DNA of 39,650 nucleotides from Escherichia phage pO91: sequence record OR204650.1; one strand, written 5' to 3'. The position numbers and the translations under genes are program-made. The notes under the pieces were generated by a model. That model was not told the DNA's origin. It worked only from the letters and a program-made list of their open reading frames with translations, and did not search any database. Position 1 is the first letter of the stretch; each line of letters opens with the position of its first letter. Shown here piece by piece: positions 1 to 39,650 of the stretch.

Positions 1-50
1 TCTATGAGTCTCTATCTGTATAGTGTTACAGTATAACATTACGTCCTACA

Positions 51-159
51 CCTACAGTCTAACTACCTACAGTCTAACTACCTACAGTCATTGACTCCTG
101 CTGTACCTACAGTCCTACAACCATAAGACGCTCACAGCCTACAGTCATAGACCTACAGT
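51..159. repeat. Left-end array of short direct repeats (CCTACAGT, 6 copies)
   Basis: CCTACAGT at 51, 66, 81, 106, 138 and 152 with irregular spacing; the position matches the short-repeat arrays next to the T7 terminal repeat. Confidence 0.6.
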
Positions 160-2130: not shown

Positions 2131-2153
2131 ACTTAACTATCACTATAGGACTC
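2131..2153 (+). promoter_or_regulatory. Phage RNAP promoter-like site upstream of the RNA polymerase gene
   Basis: ACTTAACTATCACTATAGGACTC; matches the window consensus except -14 T and +3 A; followed by GACTCAAGGTC and a GGTCT/AGACC hairpin. Confidence 0.5.
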
Positions 2154-2222: not shown

Positions 2223-4904
2223 ATGAGCGTCATCTCTATTGATAAACAGGACTTCTCTGATGTGTCGAACGCCATTGAGCCGTTTAACCTGCTGGCTGAC
2301 CATTATGGGCAAGACCTTGCAGTCAAGCAGCTTCAGCTTGAGCATGAGGCATACACTGAAGGCGAGCGACGTTTCATCAAGAACCTTGAGCGCCAGACTG
2401 AGCGCGGGGAACTGGCAGACAATCAGGTCGCCAAGCCTTTGATGCAGACTCTGGTCCCTAAGATTGCGCAAGCAGTCAAGGAGTGGCACGAAGGCCAAGA
2501 CGGGAAGCTGTCAACCTCTCGTCCGAGCGTAGCGTTCACCATGTTGAGCACTGAAGAGAAGGCCGTAAAGGACCGCTCTCTGCGCATCTCCTGTGAGTCT
2601 GCTGCGGTTATCATACTGAAGGTCATCCTCTCCAAGTTGGTCAAGCCTGAAGGGATACCGATTACACCGATGGCCTCCGCGATAGGTCGCACACTTGAGG
2701 ATGAAATCCGCTTCGGTCGAATCAGAGACAAGGAGCAGGAGCACTTCAAGAAGGCGATAGCTGAGAACCTGAACAAGCGAGCTGGGGTATCCTATAAGAA
2801 AGCCTACATGCAAGCGGTTGAGGCCTCCATGCTGGAGCAAGGCCAACTGGAAGATGCGTGGGGGACTTGGAGTCCTACCGAGTCGGTACACGTTGGCATC
2901 AAGATGCTTGAGATTGTCATCCAGTCTACACAACTGGTCGAGCTTAAGCGTTATGGTGCTGGTAATGTAGCGGCTGATGTCGAGATGGTCCATCTGTCAG
3001 AATTCTGGGTCAAGAAGATGGCACAACGTGGCTTCAACCTTGCGGGTATCGCGCCAGTCTATCAACCTTGCGTAGTTCCACCAAAGCCGTGGACTGGAGT
3101 CGTAGGCGGTGGTTACTGGGCTAAAGGTCGCAGACCGTTACCATTGATTCGCTTAGGGTCTAAGTCTGCGGTAGCACGTTACGAAGACGTGTACATGCCT
3201 GAAGTCTATGACGCTGTGAACATCATCCAGAATACACCTTGGAAAGTTAACAAGAAGGTTCTGGACGTGGTGAACATGGTCGAGAAGCTGAACAACACGC
3301 CTATTGATGACATCCCTCAGATGGAACCACTGAAGCCTGAGGACTATGCTGGTGAGACCGAGGAGGAACTCAAGGCATGGAAGAAGGCTGCTGCTGGTAT
3401 CTATCGCCGCGAGAAGGCCCGACAGTCACGCAGGTTGTCACTGAGCTTTATCGTTAACCAAGCGAACAAGTTCTCTCAGTTCAAGGCCATCTGGTTCCCG
3501 TACAACATGGACTGGCGCGGTCGCGTCTACGCTGTCCCGATGTTCAACCCTCAGGGTAACGACATGCAGAAGGGTCTCCTGACTCTGGCAGTCGGCAAGC
3601 CTATTGGTGCTGGCGGTTTCAAATGGCTAAAGGTACACGGGGCAAACTGCGCGGGTGTCGATAAAGTAACATTTGAGGAGCGCATAAAGTGGGTGGAGGA
3701 CAACCACGACAACATCATGGCTGCTGCTAAGGAACCTATGGATAGCATTGAGTGGTGGGGCAAGTTAGACTCTCCGTTCTGCTTCCTAGCGTTCTGCTTC
3801 GAGTATGCTGGCGTAATGCACCACGGCTTGTCTTACAACTGCTCGCTGCCGATAGCGTTCGATGGGTCCTGCTCTGGGATTCAGCACTTCAGCGCGATGC
3901 TTCGTGACCACATCGGTGGACATGCAGTAAACCTAACGCCATCAGGTAAGGTCCAAGACATCTACCGCATTGTGTCTGACCGCATCGAGGAGGAGCTTAA
4001 AGTCCTGCTTGTTAGCGGTACGGACAACGAGATGGTAACTCACGAGGACAAGAAAACTGGTGAGATTACCGAGCGCCTCAAGCTGGGGACACGAGAGCTG
4101 GCCCGTCAGTGGCTGACCTACGGTATGTCACGCAAGGTCACTAAGCGTTCGGTCATGACTCTAGCCTACGGGTCGAAAGAGTACGGCTTCGCAGACCAAG
4201 TTTACGAGGACATCGTGATGCCAGCGATTGACTCAGGGTCTGGCGCTATGTTCACCGAACCCAGCCAAGCGTCTCGCTTCATGGCTAAGATGATTTGGGA
4301 AGCTGTGAGTGTGACCGTAGTTGCTGCGGTTGACGCGATGAAATGGCTTCAAGGTGCCGCCAAGCTGCTGGCTGCTGAAGTGAAGGACAAGAAGACTGGC
4401 GAAATCCTGAAGCCATGCCTTCCGGTACACTGGGTCACTCCTGATGGTTTCCCGGTCTGGCAGGAATACCGCAAGAAGGATACCACACGTTTGAACCTGA
4501 TGTTCTTAGGATCATTCAACCTTCAGCCTACAGTCAACAAAGGAACGAAGAAAGAGCTGGACAAGCACAAGCAGGAGTCAGGCATTAGCCCGAACTTCGT
4601 CCACTCACAAGATGGTAGTCACCTCCGCAAGACTGTAGTCCACACGCACCGCAAGTACGGTGTGATGTCATTCGCAGTTATCCACGATAGCTTTGGGACC
4701 ATCCCGGCTGACGCTGAGTATCTGTTCCGTGGTGTCCGTGAGACGATGGTCGAGACCTACCGCGATAACGATGTGCTGCTTGACTTCTACGAGCAGTTCG
4801 AATACCAGCTTCACGAGAGTCAGCGCGACAAGTTGCCTGAGCTTCCGAAGAAAGGTAAACTGAATATCGAAGACATCTTGTCTTCAGACTTTGCATTCGC
4901 TTAA
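2223..4904 (+). CDS. Single-subunit DNA-directed RNA polymerase (T7 gene 1 homolog)
   Basis: 893 aa, collinear with recalled T7 RNAP over the full length (PFN.LADHYG, FPYNMDWRGRVYA, SPFCFLAFCFEY, GSCSGIQHFSAML, HDSFGT, C-terminal FAFA). Confidence 0.97.
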   Translation: MSVISIDKQDFSDVSNAIEPFNLLADHYGQDLAVKQLQLEHEAYTEGERRFIKNLERQTERGELADNQVAKPLMQTLVPKIAQAVKEWHEGQDGKLSTSRPSVAFTMLSTEEKAVKDRSLRISCESAAVIILKVILSKLVKPEGIPITPMASAIGRTLEDEIRFGRIRDKEQEHFKKAIAENLNKRAGVSYKKAYMQAVEASMLEQGQLEDAWGTWSPTESVHVGIKMLEIVIQSTQLVELKRYGAGNVAADVEMVHLSEFWVKKMAQRGFNLAGIAPVYQPCVVPPKPWTGVVGGGYWAKGRRPLPLIRLGSKSAVARYEDVYMPEVYDAVNIIQNTPWKVNKKVLDVVNMVEKLNNTPIDDIPQMEPLKPEDYAGETEEELKAWKKAAAGIYRREKARQSRRLSLSFIVNQANKFSQFKAIWFPYNMDWRGRVYAVPMFNPQGNDMQKGLLTLAVGKPIGAGGFKWLKVHGANCAGVDKVTFEERIKWVEDNHDNIMAAAKEPMDSIEWWGKLDSPFCFLAFCFEYAGVMHHGLSYNCSLPIAFDGSCSGIQHFSAMLRDHIGGHAVNLTPSGKVQDIYRIVSDRIEEELKVLLVSGTDNEMVTHEDKKTGEITERLKLGTRELARQWLTYGMSRKVTKRSVMTLAYGSKEYGFADQVYEDIVMPAIDSGSGAMFTEPSQASRFMAKMIWEAVSVTVVAAVDAMKWLQGAAKLLAAEVKDKKTGEILKPCLPVHWVTPDGFPVWQEYRKKDTTRLNLMFLGSFNLQPTVNKGTKKELDKHKQESGISPNFVHSQDGSHLRKTVVHTHRKYGVMSFAVIHDSFGTIPADAEYLFRGVRETMVETYRDNDVLLDFYEQFEYQLHESQRDKLPELPKKGKLNIEDILSSDFAFA

Positions 4905-5210: not shown

Positions 5211-5233
5211 CCTAAACTATCACTATAGGATTA
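5211..5233 (+). promoter_or_regulatory. Phage RNAP promoter (phi1.1-like)
   Basis: CCTAAACTATCACTATAGGATTA; -16 to +2 match the window consensus. Confidence 0.75.
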
Positions 5234-6877: not shown

Positions 6878-6900
6878 CCTAAGCTATCACTATAGGACAA
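6878..6900 (+). promoter_or_regulatory. Phage RNAP promoter (variant, -12 G)
   Basis: CCTAAGCTATCACTATAGGACAA. Confidence 0.65.
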
Positions 6901-7595: not shown

Positions 7596-7750
7596 CTGAG
7601 GTTGAGAAGAAATACATCGTGGAGCTTGAGGGTCGCGTTCAGTCCTTCGAGGTTCCGGTGTACGCAAAGTCTCTTGAAGAGGCTACCCTGAAGTCCCAAG
7701 AGTATGAGGACGCTGGGTTTGTGGTCGGACGGATTCGTCCTGAGACCTAA
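7592..7750 (+). CDS. Gene 2 homolog (inhibitor of host RNA polymerase)
   Basis: 52 aa; [15 protein letters not shown]...[10 protein letters not shown] matches recalled T7 gp2 (HSFEVPIYAETLDEA...AGFEVTRVRP). Confidence 0.8.
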
Positions 7751-7768
7751 ACTATCACTGTAGGACAG
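7746..7768 (+). promoter_or_regulatory. Phage RNAP promoter (phi2.5-like, variant -3 G)
   Basis: CCTAAACTATCACTGTAGGACAG overlapping the gene 2 stop. Confidence 0.6.
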
Positions 7769-8507: not shown

Positions 8508-8957
8508 ATGACGCTGAAAGAGAAACTGGAGGCTTACTCTAAGGTTTCTCCTTCGGGATGCTGGGAGTGGCAACGCTCCCGGACTAAAACTGGTTATGGT
8601 CAAATAGCTATAGGTCATCAGAAACAGGACTATTCTCACCGAGTTTCGTACAGGGAGTACAAAGGTCCTATACCTGATGGATTGGTTGTTAGACATAAAT
8701 GTGATAACCCTTGCTGCTGTAACCCTGAGCACCTTGAAGTTGGGACTCAGAAGGACAACATGCAGGACTGCGTGAAGCGGGGACGTCACTCGAAACCGCC
8801 AGTATTCAAAGGAGAAGCTAATCACAAGACTAAGCTGACCGAGGAAGACGTAGCGTTTATCCTGAAGTCCAAGCTGAGGCCTATAGAACTTGCTAAGATG
8901 TTTGGTGTTACTCCGCAAGCTATTAATTGGAGACGCAAGAATGGCAAGAACGATTAG
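8508..8957 (+). CDS. HNH homing-endonuclease-like protein (paralog A1)
   Basis: GPIPDGLVVRHKCDNPCCCNPEHLEVGTQKDN, a Cys/His-rich HNH core; free-standing between the SSB and endonuclease I genes. Confidence 0.85.
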   Translation: MTLKEKLEAYSKVSPSGCWEWQRSRTKTGYGQIAIGHQKQDYSHRVSYREYKGPIPDGLVVRHKCDNPCCCNPEHLEVGTQKDNMQDCVKRGRHSKPPVFKGEANHKTKLTEEDVAFILKSKLRPIELAKMFGVTPQAINWRRKNGKND

Positions 8958-10086: not shown

Positions 10087-10302
10087 ATGATTAAACTTAT
10101 CGAATTTCTCGGTCGTCTGGTGGTGCGTGGCTATCGTCATGCTGCGGTTCTGGAACGAAAAGTAGAAAAGAAGACTGCTGATGGTGCGGCCGAGGCTGCT
10201 GCTATGGCTGACAAGCTGACCATAGCGTCACTGGAAGCTGGCATGAAGGCACGTCAAGCTGATACCAAAGCTGACCAGTTGGCTCAGTTCTTCAAAGACT
10301 AA
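10087..10302 (+). CDS. Hypothetical protein (71 aa)
   Basis: ORF track; GGAGAA RBS; Ala/Lys-rich; sits where T7 carries gene 3.8, but has no HNH motif. Confidence 0.55.
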   Translation: MIKLIEFLGRLVVRGYRHAAVLERKVEKKTADGAAEAAAMADKLTIASLEAGMKARQADTKADQLAQFFKD

Positions 10303-10320
10303 ACTATCACCTTAGGGATT
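10298..10320 (+). promoter_or_regulatory. Degenerate phage promoter-like site
   Basis: ACTAAACTATCACCTTAGGGATT; upstream half matches the consensus, -4 and -3 are substituted (CT for TA). Confidence 0.35.
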
Positions 10321-10366: not shown

Positions 10367-10445
10367 GCCTCCATAGCTCAAGAGGTAGAGCGGCGGGTCT
10401 TTATGGCCTATTGCGATTAGGGTTCGAATCCCCGTGGAGGCGCCA
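10367..10445 (+). tRNA. tRNA-like element (possible tRNA gene or pseudogene; anticodon arm not resolved)
   Basis: 7-bp acceptor stem GCCTCCA/TGGAGGC plus G-CCA tail; D-arm TAGCTCAAGAGGTAGAGC; T-arm TAGGG-TTCGAAT-CCCCG; the 25-nt middle section does not give a canonical anticodon stem. Confidence 0.45.
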
Positions 10446-12378: not shown

Positions 12379-12423
12379 CTAGACTCAAGGTCATTCATAT
12401 AGAGTGGCCTTTATGATTAGACT
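12379..12423 (+). promoter_or_regulatory. Conserved hairpin element, copy 2 (putative RNase III site, R4.7-like position)
   Basis: TAGACTCAAGGTCA...TGGCCTTTATGATTAGAC; stem AAGGTCA/TGGCCTT at 12387-12393 and 12405-12411. Confidence 0.5.
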
Positions 12424-12439
12424 AAACGGAGGATTAACC

Positions 12440-14611
12440 ATGTTTGACCTTAAGGATATTTGGGGTTCGGACATCGAGACAAACGGTCTCCTTGACACCG
12501 TGTCCCAGTTCCATTGTGGGGTCCTGATTAATGCCGAGTCGAATGAGACCCTTAAGTATGGGGTAGCGCCGATGGTCGGTATCGTCGGTGGCTTCAAAGA
12601 GTATGTTAATAAAGTGGAAGAGATTGCCGCAACACCTACAGGTATGCTGGTATTCCACAACGGTATCAACTATGACGTCCCGGCTATTGACAAGCTGAAA
12701 CGTCTGTACTTTGGGAAACGCTTTAACTTCCCGAAACACAAGATGATTGATACCTTGGTGTTGGGACGCTTGATGTATCCCAACATTAAGTTCTCAGACA
12801 TGGGCGCAGTGAAAGCTGGTCGTCTACCGCCTAAGATGATGGGACGCCAGTCTCTTGAGGCTTGGGGTTATCGTCTCGGTGAGATGAAGGGTGAGTACAA
12901 ACACGATTACGTTGCCAAGTGCAAGGCAGAAGGTATCGAATATAAGGCTGGGGATGAATGGTTGTTCCCGTCTCAGGAGATGCTGGACTATAACGTTCAA
13001 GACGTTGTGGTCACACTGGCGTTGTTCAAGAAGTTCCTGACTGACAAGTATTACTTCCAGTCTGAACAGTTCGCTTTCGACCAGATTTATGCGTTGCGTC
13101 TGGAACATGATGCTGCGTGGACCTGTGCGAAGATGGAACGTAACGGCTATCCAATGAACACCGAGATGGTCGAAGGCTTGTATCGTGAACTTACAGTCAA
13201 ACGTGCAGAGCTGCTGGACAAGCTGCGTTCGACTTTCGGTAGCTGGTACGCACCAAAGGGAGGCAAGGAGTTCTTCAGGCATCCACGGACAGGTAAGGAC
13301 CTTCCGAAGTATCCGCGAGTCGTGTATCCTAAGGTCGGTGGCATCTTTAAGAAGCCGAAGAACAAAGCTCAACGCTTAGGTCTTGAACCTTGTGATCGCG
13401 ATACGCGAGACACGATGGAAGGAGCGCCTTTCACGCCAATCACTTACGTTGAGTTTAATCCGGGAAGCGGAGACCACTTGGCGAAAGTCTTGATGGAGCG
13501 TGGCTGGGAGCCTGTGGACTTCACTGACACCGGGAAACCTGTAGTCGATGACGAGACGTTAGAACACGTTAAGTTACCAGACGCAGAGGCTCAGGCTTGC
13601 GTAGAGCTGGTCCGTGAGTATCTGGTAGTCCAGAAGCGCATTGGTCAGGCGGCTGAGGGTAAGAACGCATGGTTGAAACTTGTAGGTCCAGACGGACGTA
13701 TGCATGGTTCAATCAACCCCTGCGGGGCAGTAACCGGACGTGCGACTCATAGCTCACCAAACATGGCTCAGGTCCCGGCTAACGGTGCTCCGTATGGTGA
13801 GACTTGCCGTGGTGCTTTCGGTGCAGCATGGAACAAGAAGGACGGTAAGCCAGACCCTTGGATTCAAGTTGGTGTGGATGCCTCAGGTCTTGAGCTTCGT
13901 TGTCTTGGGAACCGAGCGGCTCCGTTTGATGGTGGTGCATATGCGAAGACTGTGGTCGAAGGTGACATCCACTGGGCAAACGCAGTCAACGCTGGGTTAG
14001 CACCTAACGTCCCACGCGATAAGTCTAACCACGACCATGAGGCTTTCCGTAACAACGCTAAGACGTTCATCTATGCGTTCCTGTATGGTGCAGGGGCCGC
14101 TAAGATTGGACTGATAGTAGGAGGTGGTAAGAAGGAGGGTTCAGCTCTCATGAAGAAATTCATTGAGGGTACACCAGCCATCAAGGACCTCAGGGAAGCT
14201 GTGAGTAATACGTTAATCTCAGACTCGAAGTGGGTGGACGGTGAGAATATCGTCAAGTGGAAACGCCGTTGGCTGCGTGGACTTGATGGTCGCCGCATTC
14301 ACATCCGGTCGCCACACTCAGCACTGAACGCCTTACTTCAAGGCGATGGTGCGGTAGTCTGTAAAACGTGGTTCACTTGGCTTGAGAGGAACCTAGAAGC
14401 TAAAGGCTACGTGCATGGCTGGGATGGTGACTTTGCGATTATGGCTTTTGTCCATGATGAAGTTCAGGTTGCCGCAAGGACTATGGAAATAGCTGAGGAC
14501 ATCGTTCGGGTGGCGCAGGCCACAATGCGAGAGGTTGGAGAGTTCTATAACTTTAAATGTGTCCTTGATACAGAAGGTAAGATTGGACCTACGTGGCGCG
14601 AATGTCACTAA
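12440..14611 (+). CDS. DNA polymerase (T7 gene 5 homolog)
   Basis: DIETNGLL exonuclease motif, FHNG..YDVPA, Pol A motifs; collinear with recalled T7 gp5; GGAGG RBS before ATG at 12440. Confidence 0.96.
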   Translation: MFDLKDIWGSDIETNGLLDTVSQFHCGVLINAESNETLKYGVAPMVGIVGGFKEYVNKVEEIAATPTGMLVFHNGINYDVPAIDKLKRLYFGKRFNFPKHKMIDTLVLGRLMYPNIKFSDMGAVKAGRLPPKMMGRQSLEAWGYRLGEMKGEYKHDYVAKCKAEGIEYKAGDEWLFPSQEMLDYNVQDVVVTLALFKKFLTDKYYFQSEQFAFDQIYALRLEHDAAWTCAKMERNGYPMNTEMVEGLYRELTVKRAELLDKLRSTFGSWYAPKGGKEFFRHPRTGKDLPKYPRVVYPKVGGIFKKPKNKAQRLGLEPCDRDTRDTMEGAPFTPITYVEFNPGSGDHLAKVLMERGWEPVDFTDTGKPVVDDETLEHVKLPDAEAQACVELVREYLVVQKRIGQAAEGKNAWLKLVGPDGRMHGSINPCGAVTGRATHSSPNMAQVPANGAPYGETCRGAFGAAWNKKDGKPDPWIQVGVDASGLELRCLGNRAAPFDGGAYAKTVVEGDIHWANAVNAGLAPNVPRDKSNHDHEAFRNNAKTFIYAFLYGAGAAKIGLIVGGGKKEGSALMKKFIEGTPAIKDLREAVSNTLISDSKWVDGENIVKWKRRWLRGLDGRRIHIRSPHSALNALLQGDGAVVCKTWFTWLERNLEAKGYVHGWDGDFAIMAFVHDEVQVAARTMEIAEDIVRVAQATMREVGEFYNFKCVLDTEGKIGPTWRECH

Positions 14612-14620
14612 GGAGATAAG

Positions 14621-14947
14621 ATGGGAGGTGTAGCAACCTTACGCTTCCATAAGATGCCTACTGGATGTATCGTCTGTGTATCTCACAAGAGGAACCAAGA
14701 TGGATACTTTCGGTACACGGTAGGCTCTGCCCGTAAGCCGGGACGCAAGGCGTTTATGTTCCACCGATGGGTGTGGGAACAGAAGCGCGGACCTATACCA
14801 GATGGCTACGAGATAGACCATTTGTGCTTGAACCGTGGGTGCTGCAACATAGAGCACCTACAGTGTATTCCAAAGCGCGAACACGTCATTAAGACGAACC
14901 GTGAGCGCAAACTTATTAAGAAGGAGAAGACTAATGGCTATTACTAA
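14621..14947 (+). CDS. HNH homing-endonuclease-like protein (gene 5.3 position)
   Basis: RGPIPDGYEIDHLCLNRGCCNIEHLQ HNH core; immediately after the DNA polymerase gene. Confidence 0.8.
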   Translation: MGGVATLRFHKMPTGCIVCVSHKRNQDGYFRYTVGSARKPGRKAFMFHRWVWEQKRGPIPDGYEIDHLCLNRGCCNIEHLQCIPKREHVIKTNRERKLIKKEKTNGYY

Positions 14948-15218: not shown

Positions 15219-15424
15219 GTGAATACTTACGGGTCCTAGCGGCCCTTAAGTCCTGCCCGAAGACATTTCAGTCCAACTATGTGCGCAACAACGCTGCACT
15301 TGTGGCTGAGGCTGCGAGTCGTGGACATCTAAGCTGCCTGTCTATGGATGGGCGTAACAACGGTGCGTGGGAGATTACCGCTGCTGGCACCAAGTTCCTG
15401 AATCAACACGGAGGCTGCCTGTAA
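15215..15424 (+). CDS. Gene 5.7 homolog
   Basis: MSEYLRVLAALKSCPKTFQSNYVRNNAALVAEAASRGH..C...GRNNGAWEITA.GT almost identical in pattern to recalled T7 gp5.7; 69 aa. Confidence 0.9.
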   Translation: MSEYLRVLAALKSCPKTFQSNYVRNNAALVAEAASRGHLSCLSMDGRNNGAWEITAAGTKFLNQHGGCL

Positions 15425-15807
15425 TGACCGAGTGTACCCGTTGGACTGGCTACTTCCTATCTAATGGGTATGGTCAGATAAAGAAAGCTGGAGTAAAGTG
15501 GCTGGCACATCGTCTGGTTTATACCGAGAACTTCGGTCCAATACCTGATGGTCTGGTGGTCAGGCATAAATGTGACAACCGCTGGTGCGTTAACCCTGAG
15601 CACTTAGAGCTTGGGACTCAGCGTGATAATATAAACGACTGCGTTGCCCGTGGTCGCCATAACAATGCAAAGCTGTCAGACCAGCAGGTTCGTGAAATCC
15701 GCAAGGATAAGCGCAGCTCTCGTGCTGTAGCGGCTGACTATGGGATTGACCATAAAGGCGTACTGGCGGTGCGGAACCGTAAATCTTATCAACATGTGGA
15801 GGACTGA
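15424..15807 (+). CDS. HNH homing-endonuclease-like protein (paralog A2)
   Basis: GPIPDGLVVRHKCDNRWCVNPEHLELGTQRDN; shares an identical 15-aa block with the 8508 protein; ATG overlaps the 5.7 stop. Confidence 0.85.
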   Translation: MTECTRWTGYFLSNGYGQIKKAGVKWLAHRLVYTENFGPIPDGLVVRHKCDNRWCVNPEHLELGTQRDNINDCVARGRHNNAKLSDQQVREIRKDKRSSRAVAADYGIDHKGVLAVRNRKSYQHVED

Positions 15808-16800: not shown

Positions 16801-16823
16801 ACTAAACTATCACTATAGGGACT
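16801..16823 (+). promoter_or_regulatory. Phage RNAP promoter (phi6.5-like)
   Basis: ACTAAACTATCACTATAGGGACT; perfect -17 to +4 consensus. Confidence 0.8.
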
Positions 16824-16884
16824 TTAGGACCTAAGATATGACTATAAGATAGACTTTAGTCTCAACTTAAAGAGGAGATTCAAG

Positions 16885-18057: not shown

Positions 18058-19626
18058 ATGGCTGAACGTGAAGGGTTCGCTGCTGAAGGAGCCAAAGCGG
18101 TCTATGACCGACTGAAGAACGGTAGACAGCCATATGAGACACGCGCTCAGAACTGTGCTGCTGTCACTATCCCGTCACTGTTTCCTAAGGAGTCCGACAA
18201 CTCGTCTACGGAATACGTGACGCCGTGGCAAGCTGTAGGTGCTCGCTGTTTGAACAACTTGGCTGCAAAGCTGATGTTGGCGTTATTCCCTCAGTCACCG
18301 TGGATGCGACTTACAGTCTCCGAATATGAGGCCAAGACCTTGAGTCAGGACTCAGAGGCTGCTGCTCGTGTTGACGAAGGGCTGGCTATGGTAGAGCGTG
18401 TGTTGATGGCCTACATGGAGACAAACAGTTTCCGTGTACCACTGTTCGAAGCTCTGAAGCAGCTTATCGTCTCAGGTAACTGTCTGCTCTACATTCCAGA
18501 GCCTGAACAGGGTACTTACAGTCCTATGCGAATGTACCGCTTAGTGTCCTACGTTGTTCAGCGTGATGCTTTCGGTAACATCTTGCAGATTGTGACTCTC
18601 GACAAGGTAGCGTTTAGTGCTCTACCGGAAGACGTGAAGTCTCAACTCAACGCAGACGACTATGAGCCTGACACCGAGCTGGAAGTGTATACGCACATCT
18701 ACCGTCAGGACGACGAGTATCTGCGCTACGAGGAAGTGGAAGGAATTGAGGTAGCAGGGACCGAGGGTTCTTACCCACTGACTGCATGTCCGTACATCCC
18801 GGTACGAATGGTTCGACTGGATGGTGAAGACTATGGTCGTTCTTACTGCGAGGAGTATCTGGGAGACCTGAACTCGCTGGAGACGATTACAGAAGCTATC
18901 ACCAAAATGGCTAAGGTAGCCTCCAAGGTGGTGGGCCTCGTTAACCCGAACGGTATCACGCAACCTCGTCGTCTGAACAAGGCGGCTACAGGTGAGTTCG
19001 TGGCTGGTCGCGTTGAGGACATCAACTTCCTGCAACTGACGAAAGGTCAGGACTTTACGATTGCCAAGTCGGTGGCTGACGCTATCGAGCAACGTTTAGG
19101 CTGGGCCTTCCTTCTTAATAGTGCTGTTCAGCGTAATGCCGAGCGAGTAACTGCTGAAGAGATTCGTTATGTTGCTGGAGAACTGGAGGCGACCTTAGGT
19201 GGCGTGTACTCAGTGCAGTCACAAGAGCTTCAGTTACCTATCGTCCGTGTGCTGATGAACCAGCTTCAGTCTGCTGGCATGATTCCTGACCTTCCGAAAG
19301 AAGCGGTAGAGCCTACGGTATCCACAGGTCTTGAGGCGCTAGGTCGTGGTCAGGACTTGGAGAAGCTAACTCAGGCAGTCAACATGATGACCGGTCTGCA
19401 GCCTCTGCAACAGGACCCAGATATTAACTTGCCGACCCTGAAGCTGCGACTGCTGAATGCCTTAGGCATTGATACTGCTGGCCTTCTGCTGACTCAGGAC
19501 GAGAAGATGCAACGTATGGCTGAAAAATCCGCTCAAGGAGCTGTGGTCAACGGTGCGTCTGCTGCTGGTGCTAACATGGGCGCTGCTTTAGGTCAGGGAG
19601 CTGGTGAGGACATGGCTCAAGCCTAA
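18058..19626 (+). CDS. Portal (head-to-tail connector) protein, T7 gene 8 homolog
   Basis: Collinear with recalled T7 gp8 from MAE..G.A.EGAK.VY.RLKN.R.PYETRAQNCA through RLDGEDYGRSY and PDINL. Confidence 0.97.
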   Translation: MAEREGFAAEGAKAVYDRLKNGRQPYETRAQNCAAVTIPSLFPKESDNSSTEYVTPWQAVGARCLNNLAAKLMLALFPQSPWMRLTVSEYEAKTLSQDSEAAARVDEGLAMVERVLMAYMETNSFRVPLFEALKQLIVSGNCLLYIPEPEQGTYSPMRMYRLVSYVVQRDAFGNILQIVTLDKVAFSALPEDVKSQLNADDYEPDTELEVYTHIYRQDDEYLRYEEVEGIEVAGTEGSYPLTACPYIPVRMVRLDGEDYGRSYCEEYLGDLNSLETITEAITKMAKVASKVVGLVNPNGITQPRRLNKAATGEFVAGRVEDINFLQLTKGQDFTIAKSVADAIEQRLGWAFLLNSAVQRNAERVTAEEIRYVAGELEATLGGVYSVQSQELQLPIVRVLMNQLQSAGMIPDLPKEAVEPTVSTGLEALGRGQDLEKLTQAVNMMTGLQPLQQDPDINLPTLKLRLLNALGIDTAGLLLTQDEKMQRMAEKSAQGAVVNGASAAGANMGAALGQGAGEDMAQA

Positions 19627-19644
19627 ACTATCACTACAGGAACA
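19622..19644 (+). promoter_or_regulatory. Phage RNAP promoter (phi9-like, variant -2 C)
   Basis: CCTAAACTATCACTACAGGAACA; followed by a nested leader hairpin (ACGGGAC/GTCCCGT at 19645-19651 and 19694-19700, inner CACAC/GTGTG). Confidence 0.6.
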
Positions 19645-20617: not shown

Positions 20618-20640
20618 ACTAAACTATCACTATAGGGAGA
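20618..20640 (+). promoter_or_regulatory. Phage RNAP promoter (phi10-like, full consensus)
   Basis: ACTAAACTATCACTATAGGGAGA; T7-identical from -7 to +6; leader can form a GGGAGACC/GGTTTCCC stem. Confidence 0.85.
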
Positions 20641-20742
20641 CCAATAGACAGACTAAAGGTTTCCCTATTACTTCAGTCCATACGGATTGGGCATACAGTA
20701 AGTAATAAACTTTATCTTTCAATTGAATAGGAGAATTATCAT

Positions 20743-21786
20743 ATGGCAAACGTTCCGGGTCAGAAAATTGGTACAGACCAAGGTAAAGGCAAATCCAGTT
20801 CCGACGCTCTGGCGTTGTTCCTGAAGGTATTTGCTGGTGAAGTCCTGACCGCATTCACTCGCCGCTCTGTAACTGCTGACAAGCATATTGTCCGTACCAT
20901 TCAGAACGGTAAGTCTGCTCAGTTCCCGGTCATGGGTCGCACCTCTGGTGTGTATCTGGCTCCGGGTGAGCGACTGTCCGATAAGCGTAAAGGTATCAAA
21001 CATACCGAGAAAGTGATTACCATTGATGGTCTGCTGACTGCCGATGTGATGATTTTCGACATTGAAGACGCGATGAACCACTATGACGTGGCTGGCGAGT
21101 ACTCCAACCAGTTGGGCGAAGCTCTGGCTATCGCTGCTGATGGTGCGGTTCTGGCTGAAATGGCTATCCTGTGTAACCTCCCGGCTGCATCCAACGAGAA
21201 TATTGCCGGTCTGGGCACTGCGTCCGTACTTGAAGTAGGCAAGAAAGCTGACCTCAACACCCCGGCTAAACTGGGCGAAGCAATCATCGGTCAACTGACC
21301 ATTGCTCGTGCTAAGCTGACCTCCAACTACGTTCCTGCTGGCGACCGTTACTTCTACACCACGCCGGACAACTACTCTGCAATCCTCGCGGCTCTGATGC
21401 CGAACGCTGCTAACTATGCTGCGCTGATTGACCCAGAGACTGGTAACATACGTAACGTAATGGGCTTCGTGGTTGTTGAAGTTCCACACTTGACTCAGGG
21501 TGGTGCTGGTGAAACTCGTGGTGACGATGGTATCACTATTGCGACTGGTCAGAAGCACGCCTTCCCAGCTACTGCTGCTGGTGATGTTAAAGTTGCTCTG
21601 GACAACGTTGTGGGCCTGTTCTCTCACCGTTCTGCTGTGGGTACTGTTAAGCTGCGTGACTTGGCGCTGGAACGTGACCGTGACGTCGATGCTCAGGGCG
21701 ACCTGATTGTTGGTAAGTACGCTATGGGTCATGGTGGTCTGCGTCCAGAAGCAGCAGGCGCACTGGTTTTCAGCCCAGCGGCGTAA
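20743..21786 (+). CDS. Major capsid protein (T7 gene 10A homolog)
   Basis: GTDQGKG, LALFLKVF.GEVLTAF, KHTEKVITIDGLLTADV, AILAALMPNAANYAALIDPE, VGTVKLRDLALER, AMGHGGLRPEAAGA collinear with recalled T7 gp10A. Confidence 0.98.
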   Translation: MANVPGQKIGTDQGKGKSSSDALALFLKVFAGEVLTAFTRRSVTADKHIVRTIQNGKSAQFPVMGRTSGVYLAPGERLSDKRKGIKHTEKVITIDGLLTADVMIFDIEDAMNHYDVAGEYSNQLGEALAIAADGAVLAEMAILCNLPAASNENIAGLGTASVLEVGKKADLNTPAKLGEAIIGQLTIARAKLTSNYVPAGDRYFYTTPDNYSAILAALMPNAANYAALIDPETGNIRNVMGFVVVEVPHLTQGGAGETRGDDGITIATGQKHAFPATAAGDVKVALDNVVGLFSHRSAVGTVKLRDLALERDRDVDAQGDLIVGKYAMGHGGLRPEAAGALVFSPAA

Positions 21787-21921: not shown

Positions 21922-21961
21922 AACCCCTTGGGTGCCTTCGGGTGCTTGAGGGGTTTTTTGC
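21922..21961 (+). terminator. Late terminator (T7 Tphi-like)
   Basis: AACCCCTTGGGTGCCTTCGGGTGCTTGAGGGGTTTTTTG; G-U-rich stem and TTTTTT run; closely resembles recalled T7 Tphi. Confidence 0.85.
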
Positions 21962-21980
21962 TTAAAGTGAGAGGAGACTT

Positions 21981-25165: not shown

Positions 25166-25188
25166 CCTTAACTATCACTATAGGGACT
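25166..25188 (+). promoter_or_regulatory. Phage RNAP promoter (phi13-like) inside a perfect 10-bp inverted repeat
   Basis: CCTTAACTATCACTATAGGGACT; flanked by GGGCCTATAG (25151-25160) and CTATAGGCCC (25187-25196). Confidence 0.7.
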
Positions 25189-25217: not shown

Positions 25218-25682
25218 ATGTATATTCGCAAGGCTACGGAACCAGATGTCCACTACTTTCTGTGGCATCTTTCAGCAGATGATGTTAATGAATGCAAAGC
25301 AAACTACGGGTCAACCGTGGGTCTCTCTGAGAGACTGCTTAAGCACCTATCTCCATCATCTGTGGTCTTAACTAACGGTGTAGGCGAAGTGTTTGCCTAT
25401 GGTGGAAACCAAGGGGATAACGTATGGTTCTTGACTTCGGGTCTTGTCCACAAGCTGAGACCTAAAGAGAAGCGAGAGTTCATAAAGCGTATCTCTGAGT
25501 ACAGGGACTTAATGTTAGACCAATACGGGACCATCTGGAACTACGTGTGGTCAGGCAATAAGTCTCACATTAAATTCTTGAAGTTGCTTGGTGCTAGGTT
25601 TCACGAGGAGTGGACTGTAAGCCCAGTAACTGGTGAGCGTTTTCAACTATTCACTATCTCTAAGGAGGATGGATGTGACTAA
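25218..25682 (+). CDS. Internal virion protein at the gene 13 position
   Basis: ORF track; AAGGAGA RBS; assignment by synteny only. Confidence 0.6.
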   Translation: MYIRKATEPDVHYFLWHLSADDVNECKANYGSTVGLSERLLKHLSPSSVVLTNGVGEVFAYGGNQGDNVWFLTSGLVHKLRPKEKREFIKRISEYRDLMLDQYGTIWNYVWSGNKSHIKFLKLLGARFHEEWTVSPVTGERFQLFTISKEDGCD

Positions 25683-26061
25683 GGTTTGTACCGTCTGTAA
25701 AATTGAAAAGCCGCTCGAGGCATTCTCTCCTCGGAAAGACTCTAAGTGTGGTGTGCGCTCGGCCTGTAAGCTGTGTCATAATGGCAGGAGTCACAAGAAC
25801 AAGGGATACGAGAAGTATCACATTACGCAGATAGAATATGATTCCATCCTAAAAGAGCAGGGTGGTGTCTGCGCAATCTGCAAGACATCAGGAACTAGCC
25901 GAGGATTATGCATTGACCATTGTCACATCTCCTGGAAAGTCCGAGGCATCCTTTGTCATACCTGCAACCTAAAGCTGACCCGTAGAAACTATCCTTCTAC
26001 ATGCGAAGATTTCGATGGTAAGGCTGCTGAGTACCTGGCTATAAGCCAGAAGGGGGATTAG
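25675..26061 (+). CDS. Endonuclease VII-family (HNH-type) nuclease
   Basis: GGVCAICK...RGLCIDHCH...RGILCHTCN matches the T4 endonuclease VII zinc/His-Cys pattern; start uncertain (GTG 25675 after AAGGAGG; the track ORF starts at 25633). Confidence 0.7.
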   Translation: MTKVCTVCKIEKPLEAFSPRKDSKCGVRSACKLCHNGRSHKNKGYEKYHITQIEYDSILKEQGGVCAICKTSGTSRGLCIDHCHISWKVRGILCHTCNLKLTRRNYPSTCEDFDGKAAEYLAISQKGD

Positions 26062-31900: not shown

Positions 31901-32838
31901 TGTCTGACATCGTGGAGCATAGTCTGACTGGCAGTAAGCGTAAGTTCGATGACCGCTGGCTGAAGACCGCTGGTATCTCTGACGAGCAGTGGAAGGGTAT
32001 TAAGTCCCTAATCCGTGAGTCAGTGACTCGTGGTCCAGACGGGAAGTATACCATCAAGGATAAGAAGGCGTTCAGTCAGGACCCAAGGGCTATGGACCTG
32101 TGGCGTATGGGTGACACCATCGCTGACGAGACATTGCTTCGTCCACACAAGCTGAGTAACATGGACGCCAAGGCTTATGGCCCTCTGGCTAAGACTGTCC
32201 TTCAGTTTAAGAACTTCGTCATCAAGTCCATCAATGGGCGTACCATGCGAACCTTCTATAACGCCACGAAGAACAACCGAGCGATGGATGCTGCTCTGTC
32301 CACTGTGATGTCTATGGGTCTTGCTGGTATCTACTACATGGCTCAGGCACACATCAAGGCTTACGCTATGCAGGATGGTCGTGACCGTGACTACCTCAAG
32401 CAAGCTCTGGACCCGACGATGATCGGATATGCGGCTCTGTCCCGTAGTTCACATCTCGGTGGACCACTTGGTGTAGCTAACATTCTGGGTGGTATCGCTG
32501 GGTACGAGGACACTAAGATGCTCCGTTCATCTATCCTACCTCGTTCACCTACAGAGAAGCCTGAACGTGCCATCGCGTATGGTGCAGCTACAAGTGACCC
32601 TGTGATGAATATTGTTGGTAACTTCTTGGAGCAGGTTCCAGCTTTCGGATATGCTGCTAACGTTGGCGCTTCGGCTTACAACTTGGCTGGCTACCTAAAG
32701 GCCGATACTCGTGTCAACGAGCGTGACTACATGACCGGGATGTATAATACGTTCCGTGAACTGGTTCCGAACGACCCCATTACCCAGAAGCTGTTACTTG
32801 GAACGTTTGAGGAGCAAGGCATCCACATCAAGGACTAA
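28951..32838 (+). CDS. Internal virion protein (T7 gene 16 homolog) with a non-T7 N-terminal module
   Basis: From about residue 185 collinear with recalled T7 gp16 (STWFGF, PTRWN, VAGGDA, RLEARETARN, DLVRSPTGMQSGASGK, GTYVPHVY, ILTGRARR, LDPTMI); first ~180 aa lack SLT motifs; ATG 28951 after AAGGAG. Confidence 0.92.
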   Translation: MATRGIRNNNLGNLRVSKDQWEGAVGDDGAFVIFDSPESGVRALAKNLQSYGRQGYDSIEKIINRWAPPNENDTQSYINSVVAATGIPATQSLDLSDPDTLSSLAQAIGFHETGSRYDPEVYQKGVARALNGISPKTPPVSANVFDALTEGLKAKPNVALGENLPTAAGLNIEGQTPEAPNESFGEMFYKATGETMQEREDRSTWFGFGAATEAEVKNSMGGVAIRAGQTEDSLDVIGDVFNPTRWNNHKWTREELDQIRNAGVLPQYYGVITGGSPQNLTELINLALENQKLDQEKAKAGTGAQLAAGVIGAGVDPLTYVPIAGQVWKGGKLVNKMFTVAAQSGALAGVSERARTSVAGGDAHVAEAILGGALFGGGMTAIADGLGRALGRNTNEFAGPATRLEARETARNVDGQDLSRMPIREGEETFSHQGVKFADVPNEPGSVRLEDGSILIGENPLNPKTRQVFDEVIEPERAAAGVNLGGLTEIGLKLLRSENPEIRGVAADLVRSPTGMQSGASGKIGTTASDVFERLRAVDHRFYNDIDDAVTEALKDPYFQTAFWRDSGAFRQDVYQRVSMAIEDGSGNLKAELTPGELKVYDLLKNQFDAKREMMENPSMFGRPDAKSIFPGSRFKGTYVPHVYSNQMKELYIKELGSPEALQEAIKKSWLTSYASRPEVKKRVDEALLEADPTLTPEGLAAAVDKYANDKAYGISHTEQFERSSVMEENINGLVGLENNSFLEARNLFDSDMSIVLPNGQTFSVNNLREWDMDKIVPAYNRRVNGDIAIMAGTGKTTKDMKDLVETLMNKAGDDGKLKGEVSTLRDTLKILTGRARRDGADDAAFNTVLRTMTDLSFFAKNAYMGVQNLTEIGGMLARGNVRAMLHGVPMFRDLAFRNKKVGASEIKDLHNVLFGKELDDSIRPSKQDVIDRLRSYSDLGRGTATALGTAKYYTGELAVRSPLTKVLNGTTNYLLDAGRQGFLSDIVEHSLTGSKRKFDDRWLKTAGISDEQWKGIKSLIRESVTRGPDGKYTIKDKKAFSQDPRAMDLWRMGDTIADETLLRPHKLSNMDAKAYGPLAKTVLQFKNFVIKSINGRTMRTFYNATKNNRAMDAALSTVMSMGLAGIYYMAQAHIKAYAMQDGRDRDYLKQALDPTMIGYAALSRSSHLGGPLGVANILGGIAGYEDTKMLRSSILPRSPTEKPERAIAYGAATSDPVMNIVGNFLEQVPAFGYAANVGASAYNLAGYLKADTRVNERDYMTGMYNTFRELVPNDPITQKLLLGTFEEQGIHIKD

Positions 32839-32856
32839 ACTATCACTATAGGAAAC
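32834..32856 (+). promoter_or_regulatory. Phage RNAP promoter (phi17-like)
   Basis: ACTAAACTATCACTATAGGAAAC; followed by leader hairpin AAACGGGAG...CTCCGTTT. Confidence 0.8.
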
Positions 32857-32902: not shown

Positions 32903-35023
32903 ATGTCCACGATTACACAATTCCCTTCAGGAAACACTCAGTACAGGATTGAGTTCGACTACCTAGCCAGAACGTTTGTTGTTGTTACGCTGGTGAATAG
33001 CTCTAACCCTACCCTGAACCGTGTACTGGAAGTTGGTCGAGATTACCGATTCCTTAATCCAACGATGATTGAGATGTTGGTTGACCAATCAGGTTTCGAC
33101 ATCGTTCGTATTCACCGTCAGACTGGAACTGACTTAGTGGTAGACTTCAGGAATGGCTCAGTGTTGACAGCTAGTGACCTGACCAATGCAGAGCTTCAGG
33201 CTATCCATATTGCAGAAGAAGGTCGAGACCAAACTGTTGACTTAGCGAAGGAATATGCCGATGCTGCTGGTAGCTCTGCTGGCAACGCTAAGGATAGCGA
33301 GGACGAAGCACGACGAATCGCTGCTACTATCAAGGCAGCTAGTCTAGTTGGTTATATTACCCGTCGCTCCTTCGAGAAAGGCTTCAACGTTACAACATGG
33401 AACGAGGCCCTGCTATGGGAAGAGGATGGTGATTATTACCGCTGGGATGGTACGCTTCCAAAGAACGTTCCTGCTGGTTCAACTCCTGAAACGTCTGGTG
33501 GCATTGGGTTAGGCGCGTGGGTTAGTGTCGGCGATGCTACATTGCGCAATCAAATATCTGACCCTGACGGTGCCACTAAGTACCCAGCGTTACAAATTGC
33601 GCGTTGGCGTGATGAAGGAGATGTGCGCGGTTGGGGTGCTGGTGAAGAAGGTTTTAACGCCGCGATGTCTGCTATTAGCTCATCAGGAGGTGGGACGTTA
33701 TTTGTAAACGAGGATATTCTTTTCACTTCGTTACCTATTAACCACCTACCAAAAGTTACAGTCCACTGGAACGCTAAGGCAATTGTGCAGACCGGACTTA
33801 CATCGACTTACGCCTACATCATGGACGGTGGCGCCGATACTCCATCTTATGATAATACCGACCACTTTACGCTAGCTAACAAAACTAACTGTTACGGCTT
33901 GCGTTTAGAGGCGCAGGATTACACTGTCGGGATCAATGCCATTGGTGTATGTGTTAGGCATTGCTACGGGTGGACTTACGAAGGGGGAGCCATTATCGGA
34001 TTTAATAATGGAGGTTTCTACGAGACTAACAACTACGAAGGAAAAGCCAGCAAGTTCACTCTAGTTGTAGCCAATACAAGACTTGATAACTCCGTGGGGT
34101 TTGAAAGTAATTCAACTGACAGTTGGTTTAGTGAAATTTCGCCAGTAGGTTATTCAATCGGTGGAAAGTTTAATAAGAGTGGTAACTCTCTAGATAAATT
34201 TCATCCATGGGGAAACACTGTTGATAATCGCGTAGGCGTGATGGGGAAGATGAATGTTGGTATCGTAATTACAGAGAATGGAGGTTTTTCTACATATTCA
34301 AATATTATTCTTGATACTCCAGTAAGGAAAAACACCAATAATGTCCCATCTAGAAGTAATGGTGGGGTTGGTGTAATTTGTGATGCATGGGACTGCGTTC
34401 TTGATGGGATTCTTGTATTACCGTCCAAACATGACACAGTAGCAAAAAGTACCTTACCAATGATCACCACTACGCAAAGATCAACAATAAAAGATTTTCA
34501 GGTTTCGGGTGAGCAGTATGTAACAGACATATGGATTTCATTTGAAAACAATTCAGGGATAGCCAGGAATCACGTTTCAGGTTATGGGTATGCTGAAAAA
34601 ATGCGTACAGGAATGACCTTTGGGCCTAATTCTGGAGCTGCCCTTGCAAGTGCTGGGGGTGTAACGATGTCGAGCCAAACTCTGACCTCTGGAATATGGA
34701 ACAACACATTAAGTTTTTCCATAGCTACAACAGTAACAGCTATACCGTCAGCAACAGGTGATGTAATTGTTAATATATCTCCTGTTTATGGCATTAAATC
34801 TGGATTCGGAGGTACTGTTAAGGGTGGTATGTTTGCATTCTTCTATGCTACCGCTAACTCCTCCAAACAATTGTACGATGTGTCCATAGAAGTTACAGCA
34901 GACAACACAGCTAAGTTTCTGCTAACGTTTATCGACGGCACGACACGGTACGCACGATGGACAGATGTATCTAACGGTTCATCAAGAAGCATAAGCATAT
35001 CAGGAGTCCTTAATATAAAATAA
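32903..35023 (+). CDS. Tail fibre / tailspike protein (T7 gene 17 homolog N-terminus, divergent C-terminal receptor-binding module)
   Basis: N-terminal ~150 aa (FDYLARTFVVVTL, DYRF, DFRNGSVLTASDL, AEEGRD) match the recalled T7 gp17 adaptor domain; the remainder is unrelated to T7 and the last ~1 kb is visibly AT-rich. Confidence 0.9.
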   Translation: MSTITQFPSGNTQYRIEFDYLARTFVVVTLVNSSNPTLNRVLEVGRDYRFLNPTMIEMLVDQSGFDIVRIHRQTGTDLVVDFRNGSVLTASDLTNAELQAIHIAEEGRDQTVDLAKEYADAAGSSAGNAKDSEDEARRIAATIKAASLVGYITRRSFEKGFNVTTWNEALLWEEDGDYYRWDGTLPKNVPAGSTPETSGGIGLGAWVSVGDATLRNQISDPDGATKYPALQIARWRDEGDVRGWGAGEEGFNAAMSAISSSGGGTLFVNEDILFTSLPINHLPKVTVHWNAKAIVQTGLTSTYAYIMDGGADTPSYDNTDHFTLANKTNCYGLRLEAQDYTVGINAIGVCVRHCYGWTYEGGAIIGFNNGGFYETNNYEGKASKFTLVVANTRLDNSVGFESNSTDSWFSEISPVGYSIGGKFNKSGNSLDKFHPWGNTVDNRVGVMGKMNVGIVITENGGFSTYSNIILDTPVRKNTNNVPSRSNGGVGVICDAWDCVLDGILVLPSKHDTVAKSTLPMITTTQRSTIKDFQVSGEQYVTDIWISFENNSGIARNHVSGYGYAEKMRTGMTFGPNSGAALASAGGVTMSSQTLTSGIWNNTLSFSIATTVTAIPSATGDVIVNISPVYGIKSGFGGTVKGGMFAFFYATANSSKQLYDVSIEVTADNTAKFLLTFIDGTTRYARWTDVSNGSSRSISISGVLNIK

Positions 35024-38259: not shown

Positions 38260-38802
38260 ATGGCGAAGGTGAAGGACATCGACAGGGTGTCCCTCTTCGA
38301 CCACTATGCGTATGTTGATGGACAACTGGTGTGCAGGAAGCCTTTCGGCAGCTCGAAGAAGACCCCGGGCGAACCTATGGGCTTCTCTGTACACCCTTCC
38401 GGATACGCCATAGTGAAGGTGCTTGGAGGTAGGTATAGACGCTCTCGAATCATATACAGTCTAGCTGTAGGTCGAATACCTAAGGGTATGATGGTCGACC
38501 ACATCAATGGTGATAGGCTGGACGATAGACCTGAGAACTACAGGCTTGTTACTGCGCTTGAGAACCGCTGGAACTCAGAGGGTGGAGAGACTAATGGTCT
38601 CCCTAAGGGTATCAGCTTCTTCAAGCCAACAGGTAAATATCGTGCTCAGCTTCGGGTTCATGGTAAGTGTTTCACTAAGACTTCGGATTCCATAGAGGAA
38701 CTAGAGGCATGGCTGGCTGCTCTACGAACAGAGAAGCACAAGGAATACGCAGTAAACCGACGGTCCCCTACGCGAGATAGGACATACAGAAACCGTAAGT
38801 AG
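38260..38802 (+). CDS. HNH_3-type homing endonuclease with AP2-like domain (paralog B2)
   Basis: MVDHINGDRLDDRPENYRLVTALEN plus GISFFKPTGKYRAQLRVHGK; directly after the large terminase gene; AAGGAGG RBS. Confidence 0.85.
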   Translation: MAKVKDIDRVSLFDHYAYVDGQLVCRKPFGSSKKTPGEPMGFSVHPSGYAIVKVLGGRYRRSRIIYSLAVGRIPKGMMVDHINGDRLDDRPENYRLVTALENRWNSEGGETNGLPKGISFFKPTGKYRAQLRVHGKCFTKTSDSIEELEAWLAALRTEKHKEYAVNRRSPTRDRTYRNRK

Positions 38803-38815
38803 AATCAACAGGTTA

Positions 38816-38838
38816 ACTAAACTATCACTATAGGGATG
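38816..38838 (+). promoter_or_regulatory. Phage RNAP promoter near the right end (phiOR-like)
   Basis: ACTAAACTATCACTATAGGGATG; transcript begins GGGATGGGGGGACCGGGGGGACC. Confidence 0.8.
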
Positions 38839-39404: not shown

Positions 39405-39441
39405 CCTACGGTCCTTGACCTACAGTAGCTGCCACCTACAG
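39405..39441. repeat. Right-end copies of the CCTACAGT-family short repeat
   Basis: CCTACGGT at 39405, CCTACAGT at 39418 and 39434; same family as the left-end array. Confidence 0.55.
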
Positions 39442-39478
39442 TCTTCGATTAGTTTTGGACCAAAAGTTTGAGACCACA

Positions 39479-39650
39479 TCTCACAGTTCAAGAACCTCAA
39501 GTCTCCCCCATAGGCCCTCTTTCAGTCCAGACCAAGGATGGCCCTACCTCCAGTCTATCACAAGGTTAGACAGACGGTCAAGACTTCAGGTCAACGATAG
39601 GTCATGACGATAGGTGGTGGTGGAGACGATAGGTTGGGACTATGGGTCTG
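39479..39650. repeat. Terminal-repeat-like region (single collapsed copy; probable physical genome end near 39479)
   Basis: TCTCACAGTTCAAGAACCTCAAGTCTCCCCCATAGG resembles the first bases of the recalled T7 genome; window end joined to window start resembles the recalled end of the T7 terminal repeat. Confidence 0.4.

Follow-up and report, generated by a model that had tools for sequence, protein, structure and literature searches.

The RNA polymerase and promoters of a T7-like phage genome almost certainly belong to the known K1F specificity

The single-subunit RNA polymerase (RNAP) encoded in the window (by which we mean the whole 39,650-nucleotide stretch of DNA analyzed here, from Escherichia phage pO91, record OR204650.1) and the set of promoters that accompanies it are almost certainly the K1F RNAP/PK1F pair, which is already described and in use as an orthogonal tool, and not a new specificity. 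We make this identification because the phi10 23-mer is identical in the two phages, the eleven sites are syntenic, the polymerases share 98.2% of their residues, and the specificity loop is the same in both. A first-pass annotation had implied that the pair might be novel, while allowing that it could match an already described relative. K1F being a characterized phage with the same promoter and a near-identical RNAP, the implied novelty falls and the hedge proves correct.

The window comprises the complete genome of a T7-like phage in which every large open reading frame (ORF) lies on one strand, and its sequence assigns it to Kayfunavirus (K1F-like phages of the T7 supergroup). Kayfunavirus phages are the top matches for the RNAP gene and for both halves of the genome (∼93–95% nucleotide identity, 81–100% of the query), and the closest whole-genome matches show ∼93–94% identity across 81–94% of the query. 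Given the latter value, and because an exact look-up of the RNAP sequence in a collection of 15 billion proteins found no copy, the phage is probably an undescribed Kayfunavirus at the species level, which is a routine result. A tblastn search with the K1F proteome, by which the gene names used here were assigned, found genes 0.1 to 19.4 in the same order as in K1F, most of the proteins being 80–100% identical. The tailspike gp17 (32903–35023, plus strand, 706 residues) resembles K1F gp17 over its first 261 residues only (87%); beyond residue 261 it is unrelated to the K1F endosialidase, and its Pfam matches are Phage_T7_tail and Tail_spike_N only. Because this C-terminal part is unrelated to the endosialidase, the K1 capsule is probably not the host receptor. 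Five endonuclease ORFs are inserted among the conserved genes: four are HNH_3 homing-endonuclease-like and one is Endonuclease_7. The DNA polymerase ORF (12404–14611) is uninterrupted and followed by an HNH ORF, whereas the K1F annotation joins its polymerase gene across an intervening HNH gene. A comparison of the two ends of the window (1–60 against 39430–39650) revealed no direct terminal repeat, and its first 30 nt have no second copy; repeats of 179–190 bp are reported for relatives, and the window probably holds a single repeat copy, or else its ends have been trimmed or permuted.

The promoter set is sharply bounded. A search with the 14-mer core ACTATCACTATAGG, allowing ≤2 mismatches, returned eleven sites, all on the plus strand and none on the minus strand, against a chance expectation of 0.21 ± 0.43 in dinucleotide-preserving shuffles. 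With a position weight matrix (PWM) derived from them, the eleven sites score 31.3–36.7 bits, the gene 4 promoter being the weakest match, and the next best position on either strand reaches 13.7 bits. On the shuffle expectation and this gap, eleven is the right count, as the first-pass annotation had it. That annotation had also described the eleven sites as sharing one 23-mer, ACTAAACTATCACTATAGGGAGA; the core and the number of sites stand, but the exact 23-mer is present in a single copy, at phi10 (Table 1), and is thus the phi10 instance and not a strict consensus. The full 23-mer with ≤3 mismatches retrieves just four sites, and the core and the PWM were used for this reason. The highest-scoring match below threshold, at 16830–16852 on the plus strand (13.7 bits, CCTAAGATATGACTATAAGATAG), begins 7 nt past phi6.5 and may be the decayed remnant of a tandem promoter.

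Across the eleven sites, positions −16, −15, −13, −11 to −5, −1, +1, and +2 are invariant, while −17, −14, −12, −4 to −2, and +3 to +6 vary. A and C both occur at −17, as do A and T at −14, and +3 is split between A (six sites) and G (five). The −12 to −8 block reads ACTAT in 10 of 11 sites; the exception, GCTAT at phi1.6, results from a G in place of A at −12 and recurs at the corresponding promoter of K1F, TM1, and Ro45lw. The set of eleven sites carries 36 bits of information (uncorrected value).

All sites lie at gene ends or in intergenic regions, co-oriented with the genes, at positions that match phi promoters of T7, T3, and K11; they precede genes 1, 1.15, 1.6, 2.5, 4, 6.5, 9, 10, 13, and 17, and one stands near the right end. 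The phi10 site begins 2 nt past the gene 9 stop codon, 108 nt 5′ of the ATG of gene 10 (major capsid) at 20743. The window thus has what characterizes promoters of the T7 supergroup (Studiervirinae), namely a ∼23-bp element (−17 to +6) that is repeated around the genome with a CACTATAGG-type core invariant at −7 to −5, −1, +1, and +2, a consistent orientation and synteny, and a cognate single-subunit RNAP in the same genome. Repeats of this kind could in principle be another dispersed element (targets of homing endonucleases, recombination sites, or packaging signals), and the five homing-endonuclease-like ORFs lend that idea some color. We regard it as next to impossible, however: the HNH ORFs do not adjoin most of the sites, all eleven sites are co-oriented at the phi positions of T7, T3, and K11 with the initiation core retained, and the same sequence drives transcription by the K1F and Ro45lw RNAPs in vitro and in vivo.

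The promoter placed 75 nt upstream of the RNAP start codon is the same in K1F and TM1 and has one change in Ro45lw. Its location directly before the polymerase gene would imply positive autoregulation. The T7 record annotates no T7 promoter between genes 0.7 and 1. At the left end of the window, the site scan found no promoter at the position of T7 phiOL.

Table 1. Coordinates of the promoters, the RNAP gene and its recognition elements, and other features of the window.
Feature	Position	Strand	+1 (predicted)	Sequence	Remarks
Promoter directly 5′ of gene 1 (RNAP)	2131–2153	+	2148	ACTTAACTATCACTATAGGACTC	ATG at 2223
Gene 1, single-subunit DNA-dependent RNAP	2223–4904	+			893 aa; Pfam RNA_pol 3.1e-106, RPOL_N 2.9e-14
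AT-rich recognition loop equivalent	2499–2531	+		DGKLSTSRPSV	aa 93–103; 2-aa insertion vs T7 93–101 (alignment)
Specificity loop region	4461–4562	+			aa 747–780 = T7 737–770; same sequence in K1F and TM1
Promoter between genes 1.1 and 1.15	5211–5233	+	5228	CCTAAACTATCACTATAGGATTA	
phi1.6	6878–6900	+	6895	CCTAAGCTATCACTATAGGACAA	After ligase gene 1.3; sole site with G at −12
phi2.5	7746–7768	+	7763	CCTAAACTATCACTGTAGGACAG	
HNH_3/Endonuclease_7 ORFs	8508–8957, 14621–14947, 15367–15807, 38260–38802, 25633–26061	+			Pfam
Promoter 5′ of gene 4	10298–10320	+	10315	ACTAAACTATCACCTTAGGGATT	T7 phi3.8 position
tRNA-like element	10367–10445	+			Rfam tRNA 35.9 bits (gathering 29); ARAGORN 'tRNA-Stop', anticodon tta
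phi6.5	16801–16823	+	16818	ACTAAACTATCACTATAGGGACT	
phi9	19622–19644	+	19639	CCTAAACTATCACTACAGGAACA	
phi10	20618–20640	+	G at 20635	ACTAAACTATCACTATAGGGAGA	Identical 23-mer at K1F 20997–21019
5′ hairpin of predicted phi10 transcript	20635–20665	+		stem GGGAGACC...GGUUUCCC	−14.4 kcal/mol, z = −4.97
Terminator-like hairpin and T-run	21935–21962	+			Gene 10/gene 11 gap; Tphi position per T7 and T3 annotation
phi13	25166–25188	+	25183	CCTTAACTATCACTATAGGGACT	
phi17	32834–32856	+	32851	ACTAAACTATCACTATAGGAAAC	Overlaps gene 16 end
phiOR-position promoter	38816–38838	+	38833	ACTAAACTATCACTATAGGGATG	Near right end

The window promoters were compared with those of four well-known phages. Annotated promoters were taken from the RefSeq records of T7 (NC_001604, 17 promoters), T3 (NC_003298, 14), and K11 (NC_011043, 13), and the SP6 consensus came from a pattern scan of NC_004831; the consensuses extracted were TAATACGACTCACTATAGGG.. 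for T7, aATTAACCCTCACTAAaGGGAG. for T3, AATTAGGaCaCACTATAGGGA.. for K11, and AtTTAGGTGACACTATAGAA.. for SP6. At −12 to −8, the window has ACTAT where T7 has CGACT, T3 ACCCT, K11 GGRCA (GG(A/G)CA), and SP6 GGTGA, which bears out the differences that the first-pass annotation had stated; the window promoters carry the specificity block of none of these four classes. A scan with the T7 consensus at ≤3 mismatches gave 0 matches in the window, which therefore holds no T7-type promoters. Relative to T7, phi10 differs at every position from −17 to −14 and from −12 to −9 and is identical from −8 to +6, one position more than the identity from −7 to +6 that had been noticed earlier. Over all 23 positions, phi10 differs from T7 at 8, from T3 at 5, from K11 at 7, and from SP6 at 11. 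These differences, like the absence of the exact RNAP from the 15-billion-protein collection, would fit a specificity apart from every characterized phage RNAP/promoter pair; the comparison with K1F bears directly on that reading (see below).

In the polymerase itself, the catalytic residues Asp547, Lys641, Tyr649, His794, and Asp822 are found in conserved motifs and correspond to T7 Asp537, Lys631, Tyr639, His784, and Asp812 (T7 numbering +10). Alignment gives identities of 64% with the RNAPs of T7 and T3, 59% with that of K11, and 32% with that of SP6. The peptide that had been singled out as the counterpart of the T7 specificity loop, FNLQPTVNKGTKKELDKHKQESG, comprises residues 765–787 (nt 4515–4583) and aligns to T7 755–777, FRLQPTINTNKDSEIDAHKQESG. 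It does carry substitutions, and two of them, R756N and I761V, are in the hairpin part; a third hairpin change relative to T7, Q754S, lies outside the quoted peptide. The contact positions of the loop, Arg756, Asn758, Asn766, and Gln768, are equivalent to T7 Arg746, Asn748, Arg756, and Gln758, so that three of the T7 residues are kept and Arg756 is replaced by Asn. Hairpin residues 746, 748, 756, and 758 of T7 RNAP hydrogen-bond to major-groove bases upstream of −7 (PMC11880802). Because the hairpin has Ser, Asn, and Val at T7 positions 754, 756, and 761, its specificity is expected to differ from that of T7. The assignment of residues to bases is incomplete, since Asn748 is unchanged although the bases at −11 and −10 differ. 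For the equivalent of the AT-rich recognition loop, established structural knowledge of T7 points to the −17 to −13 block, (A/C)CT(A/T)A, as the likely partner.

The comparison with K1F settles the matter of novelty. Sequences of the K1F promoters and loop came directly from the GenBank records (DQ111067 and AM084414), in which no promoters are annotated, and from Table 2 of PMC11880802. K1F has eleven syntenic sites, and 8 of the 11 23-mers, phi10 ACTAAACTATCACTATAGGGAGA included, are identical to those of the window; the other three differ by one to three bases (at +6 of the gene 4 promoter, at −2 of phi9, and in phiOR). The window RNAP matches K1F gp1 at 877 of 893 residues, and the 16 substitutions all fall within residues 9–598; no difference falls in residues 599–893, within which the entire specificity loop lies, and the segment equivalent to T7 732–780 is the same in the window, K1F, and TM1. 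The sequence features of the K1F-type class are thereby present, namely the ACTAT block, Ser/Asn/Val at T7 positions 754/756/761 together with Arg746, Asn748, and Gln758, near-identity of the RNAP, and synteny. With the phi10 23-mer and eight promoters shared, the loop identical, the RNAP nearly so, and the K1F pair already characterized and in use, we consider a new specificity highly improbable and reject it on the promoter, RNAP, and loop comparisons.

The same elements recur in other relatives. The core likewise occurs at 11 sites each in TM1 and Ro45lw, and several of those in Ro45lw are annotated as promoters in its record; for another Kayfunavirus, the consensus CTWAACTATCACTATAGG was reported in 2026 as a presumed promoter (PMC13298934). 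DNA coding for the loop is found at ≥80% identity in 204 phage records. The pattern of substitutions is mild support for a picture in which, across the genus, the loop and its promoter are held fixed together and the remainder of the polymerase accumulates changes. In phi9, the window has C at −2 (CACTACAGG), where K1F, TM1, and Ro45lw have T. One of the 16 RNAP substitutions, P92Q, adjoins the AT-rich recognition loop. These substitutions, P92Q in particular, might combine with the C at −2 of phi9 and the changes in phiOR to give a promoter-strength hierarchy or a product-end fidelity unlike that of K1F RNAP; we think this very unlikely, but if true, the altered hierarchy or fidelity would make the window RNAP a distinct tool enzyme.

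The suggestion that the pair may be orthogonal to the common laboratory ones finds support in published work on the same K1F loop and ACTAT block (PMC3458549, PMC11880802, PMC4299498). In the work of Temme et al. (2012), T7 RNAP received the K1F hairpin, and promoter positions −12 to −7 were exchanged accordingly; the resulting T7(K1F) enzyme gave a 17-fold induction on its cognate promoter and was orthogonal to the T7, T3, and N4 variants (PMC3458549). The variant is tabulated as 632S, 754S, 756N, and 761V with a cognate −12 to −8 block of ACTAT (PMC11880802, Table 2). Full-length K1F RNAP has also been used, with the promoter ...cctaaactatcactatagg, and is reported to show orthogonality toward the MmP1 and VP4 systems (PMC12218169); the promoter used in that study, gacatggctcaagcctaaactatcactatagg, is K1F phi9. 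K1F phi9 is likewise the PK1F of published expression and mutator systems. The Ro45lw RNAP has been purified, and with the minimal promoter ACTTAACTATCACTATAGGGA its +1 was mapped to G (JBC 2025; PMC12272871). By analogy, we infer that the window enzyme behaves like the K1F and Ro45lw RNAPs in promoter use, in initiation at G, and in orthogonality.

How far this orthogonality extends in practice deserves some care, as T7 or T3 RNAP might read the promoter efficiently, or the window RNAP might read T7 or T3 promoters. The promoter is the same as that of T7 from −7 to +2, and T3 differs from it at just two positions within −12 to −8. The grafted set was credited with only limited orthogonality, a score of 8 by the authors' own measure (PMC11880802). 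In source data that, like the other published orthogonality figures, describe T7-backbone chimeras or split enzymes and not the native enzyme on native T7, T3, SP6, and K11 promoters, a K1F-type fragment (K1FR) on PT7 gave 259.5 against 6326 for the T7-type fragment, ∼4% of cognate activity, but on PK1F the T7-type and T3-type fragments gave 19.0 and 6.7 against 2448 for K1FR, with a background of 5 (PMC4299498). The native promoter moreover differs from that of T7 at 4 of the 5 positions from −17 to −13, a difference left unexploited in the chimeras. We therefore judge a pair that is not usefully orthogonal to be unlikely.

With the pair read as that of K1F, the transcription program can be outlined as follows. 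The first RNAP would presumably be produced by the host polymerase, transcribing from the left end; a scan of the left 2.3 kb for sigma-70 promoters gave 2 matches against 4.0 expected, so that early host promoters are not established by it, and one candidate is TTGACA-18-TAGTAT at 412–441. The gene 1 RNAP would then transcribe the rest of the genome from the eleven co-oriented 23-bp promoters. Each of these consists of an upstream block from −17 to −13, (A/C)CT(A/T)A; a specificity block from −12 to −8, ACTAT; and a melting and initiation block, CACTATA|GG, in common with T7. The hairpin of the specificity loop would read the ACTAT block through the major groove, and R756N, together with Q754S and I761V, likely shifts its target at −12 to −9 from CGAC to ACTA; in the published chimera, this is enough. 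The altered AT-rich loop, for its part, may match the altered −17 to −13 block.

The phi10 promoter is expected to drive the major capsid gene. Its predicted transcript would begin with a stabilizing 5′ hairpin, whose stem also opens the T7 phi10 leader, and would end at a Tphi-like terminator.

A tRNA-like element lies between the promoter of gene 4 and the Shine-Dalgarno sequence and ATG (10460) of that gene. About 33 related Kayfunavirus records carry it at 91–93% identity, with inconsistent annotation (tRNA-OTHER, tRNA-Thr, or pseudo(GTG)), and in one paper it is described as a pseudo-tRNA (PMC8402661). Compensatory changes preserve the cloverleaf, for example, a window-specific replacement of U-A by C-G at acceptor pair 2-71. 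The anticodon loop is CTTTATG in the window alone, against CGTGATG in the relatives, and it is for this reason that ARAGORN calls an anticodon that reads ochre codons; a scan of IMG/VR found the element at a single locus. T3 has the RNase III site R3.8 upstream of gene 4, where the window has this element. On account of that position, the element seems no less likely to serve in mRNA processing than to decode as a suppressor tRNA. The window-specific anticodon loop may deserve more attention than the promoters.

As a discovery, the pair carries little weight: synthetic biology has used the K1F pair as a standard orthogonal part since 2012, and the RNAP of a close relative, Ro45lw, has been purified and characterized. 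The useful outcome is a negative one, in that the K1F specificity has been found again in a new Kayfunavirus genome, which contributes a further natural RNAP variant, with the same loop as K1F and 16 substitutions relative to it.

The window can finally be set beside the systems that it resembles. With T7 it has in common the 23-bp promoter architecture, the CACTATAGG core, the catalytic residues, Arg746, Asn748, and Gln758, and promoters at the positions of phi1.6, 2.5, 6.5, 9, 10, 13, 17, and OR. It has 11 promoters to the 17 of T7, lacks a site at the phiOL position, and has one upstream of gene 1; its RNAP, at 64% identity to that of T7, is set apart by R756N, Q754S, I761V, and the 2-residue insertion in the AT-rich loop. 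Like the window promoters, that of T3 has A at −12 and C at −11, but T3 RNAP reads ACCCT with Asp748 and Arg756. The K11 RNAP, like that of the window, has Asn at position 756, yet it reads GGRCA with Lys748 and Lys758. The engineered T7(K1F) polymerase has the same Ser, Asn, and Val at T7 positions 754, 756, and 761 and the same ACTAT block as the window, but on a T7 backbone with the T7 AT-rich loop and TAATA at −17 to −13, where the window has its own loop and (A/C)CT(A/T)A. Among natural systems, the RNAP of Ro45lw is 93.8% identical to that of the window, with 55 substitutions, the same contact residues, and two conservative differences in the loop region (M760L and T775S in window numbering). 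K1F has the gene order of the window and differs from it in the C-terminal part of the tailspike, the window being without an endosialidase, and in lacking the extra homing-endonuclease ORFs and the tRNA-like element.
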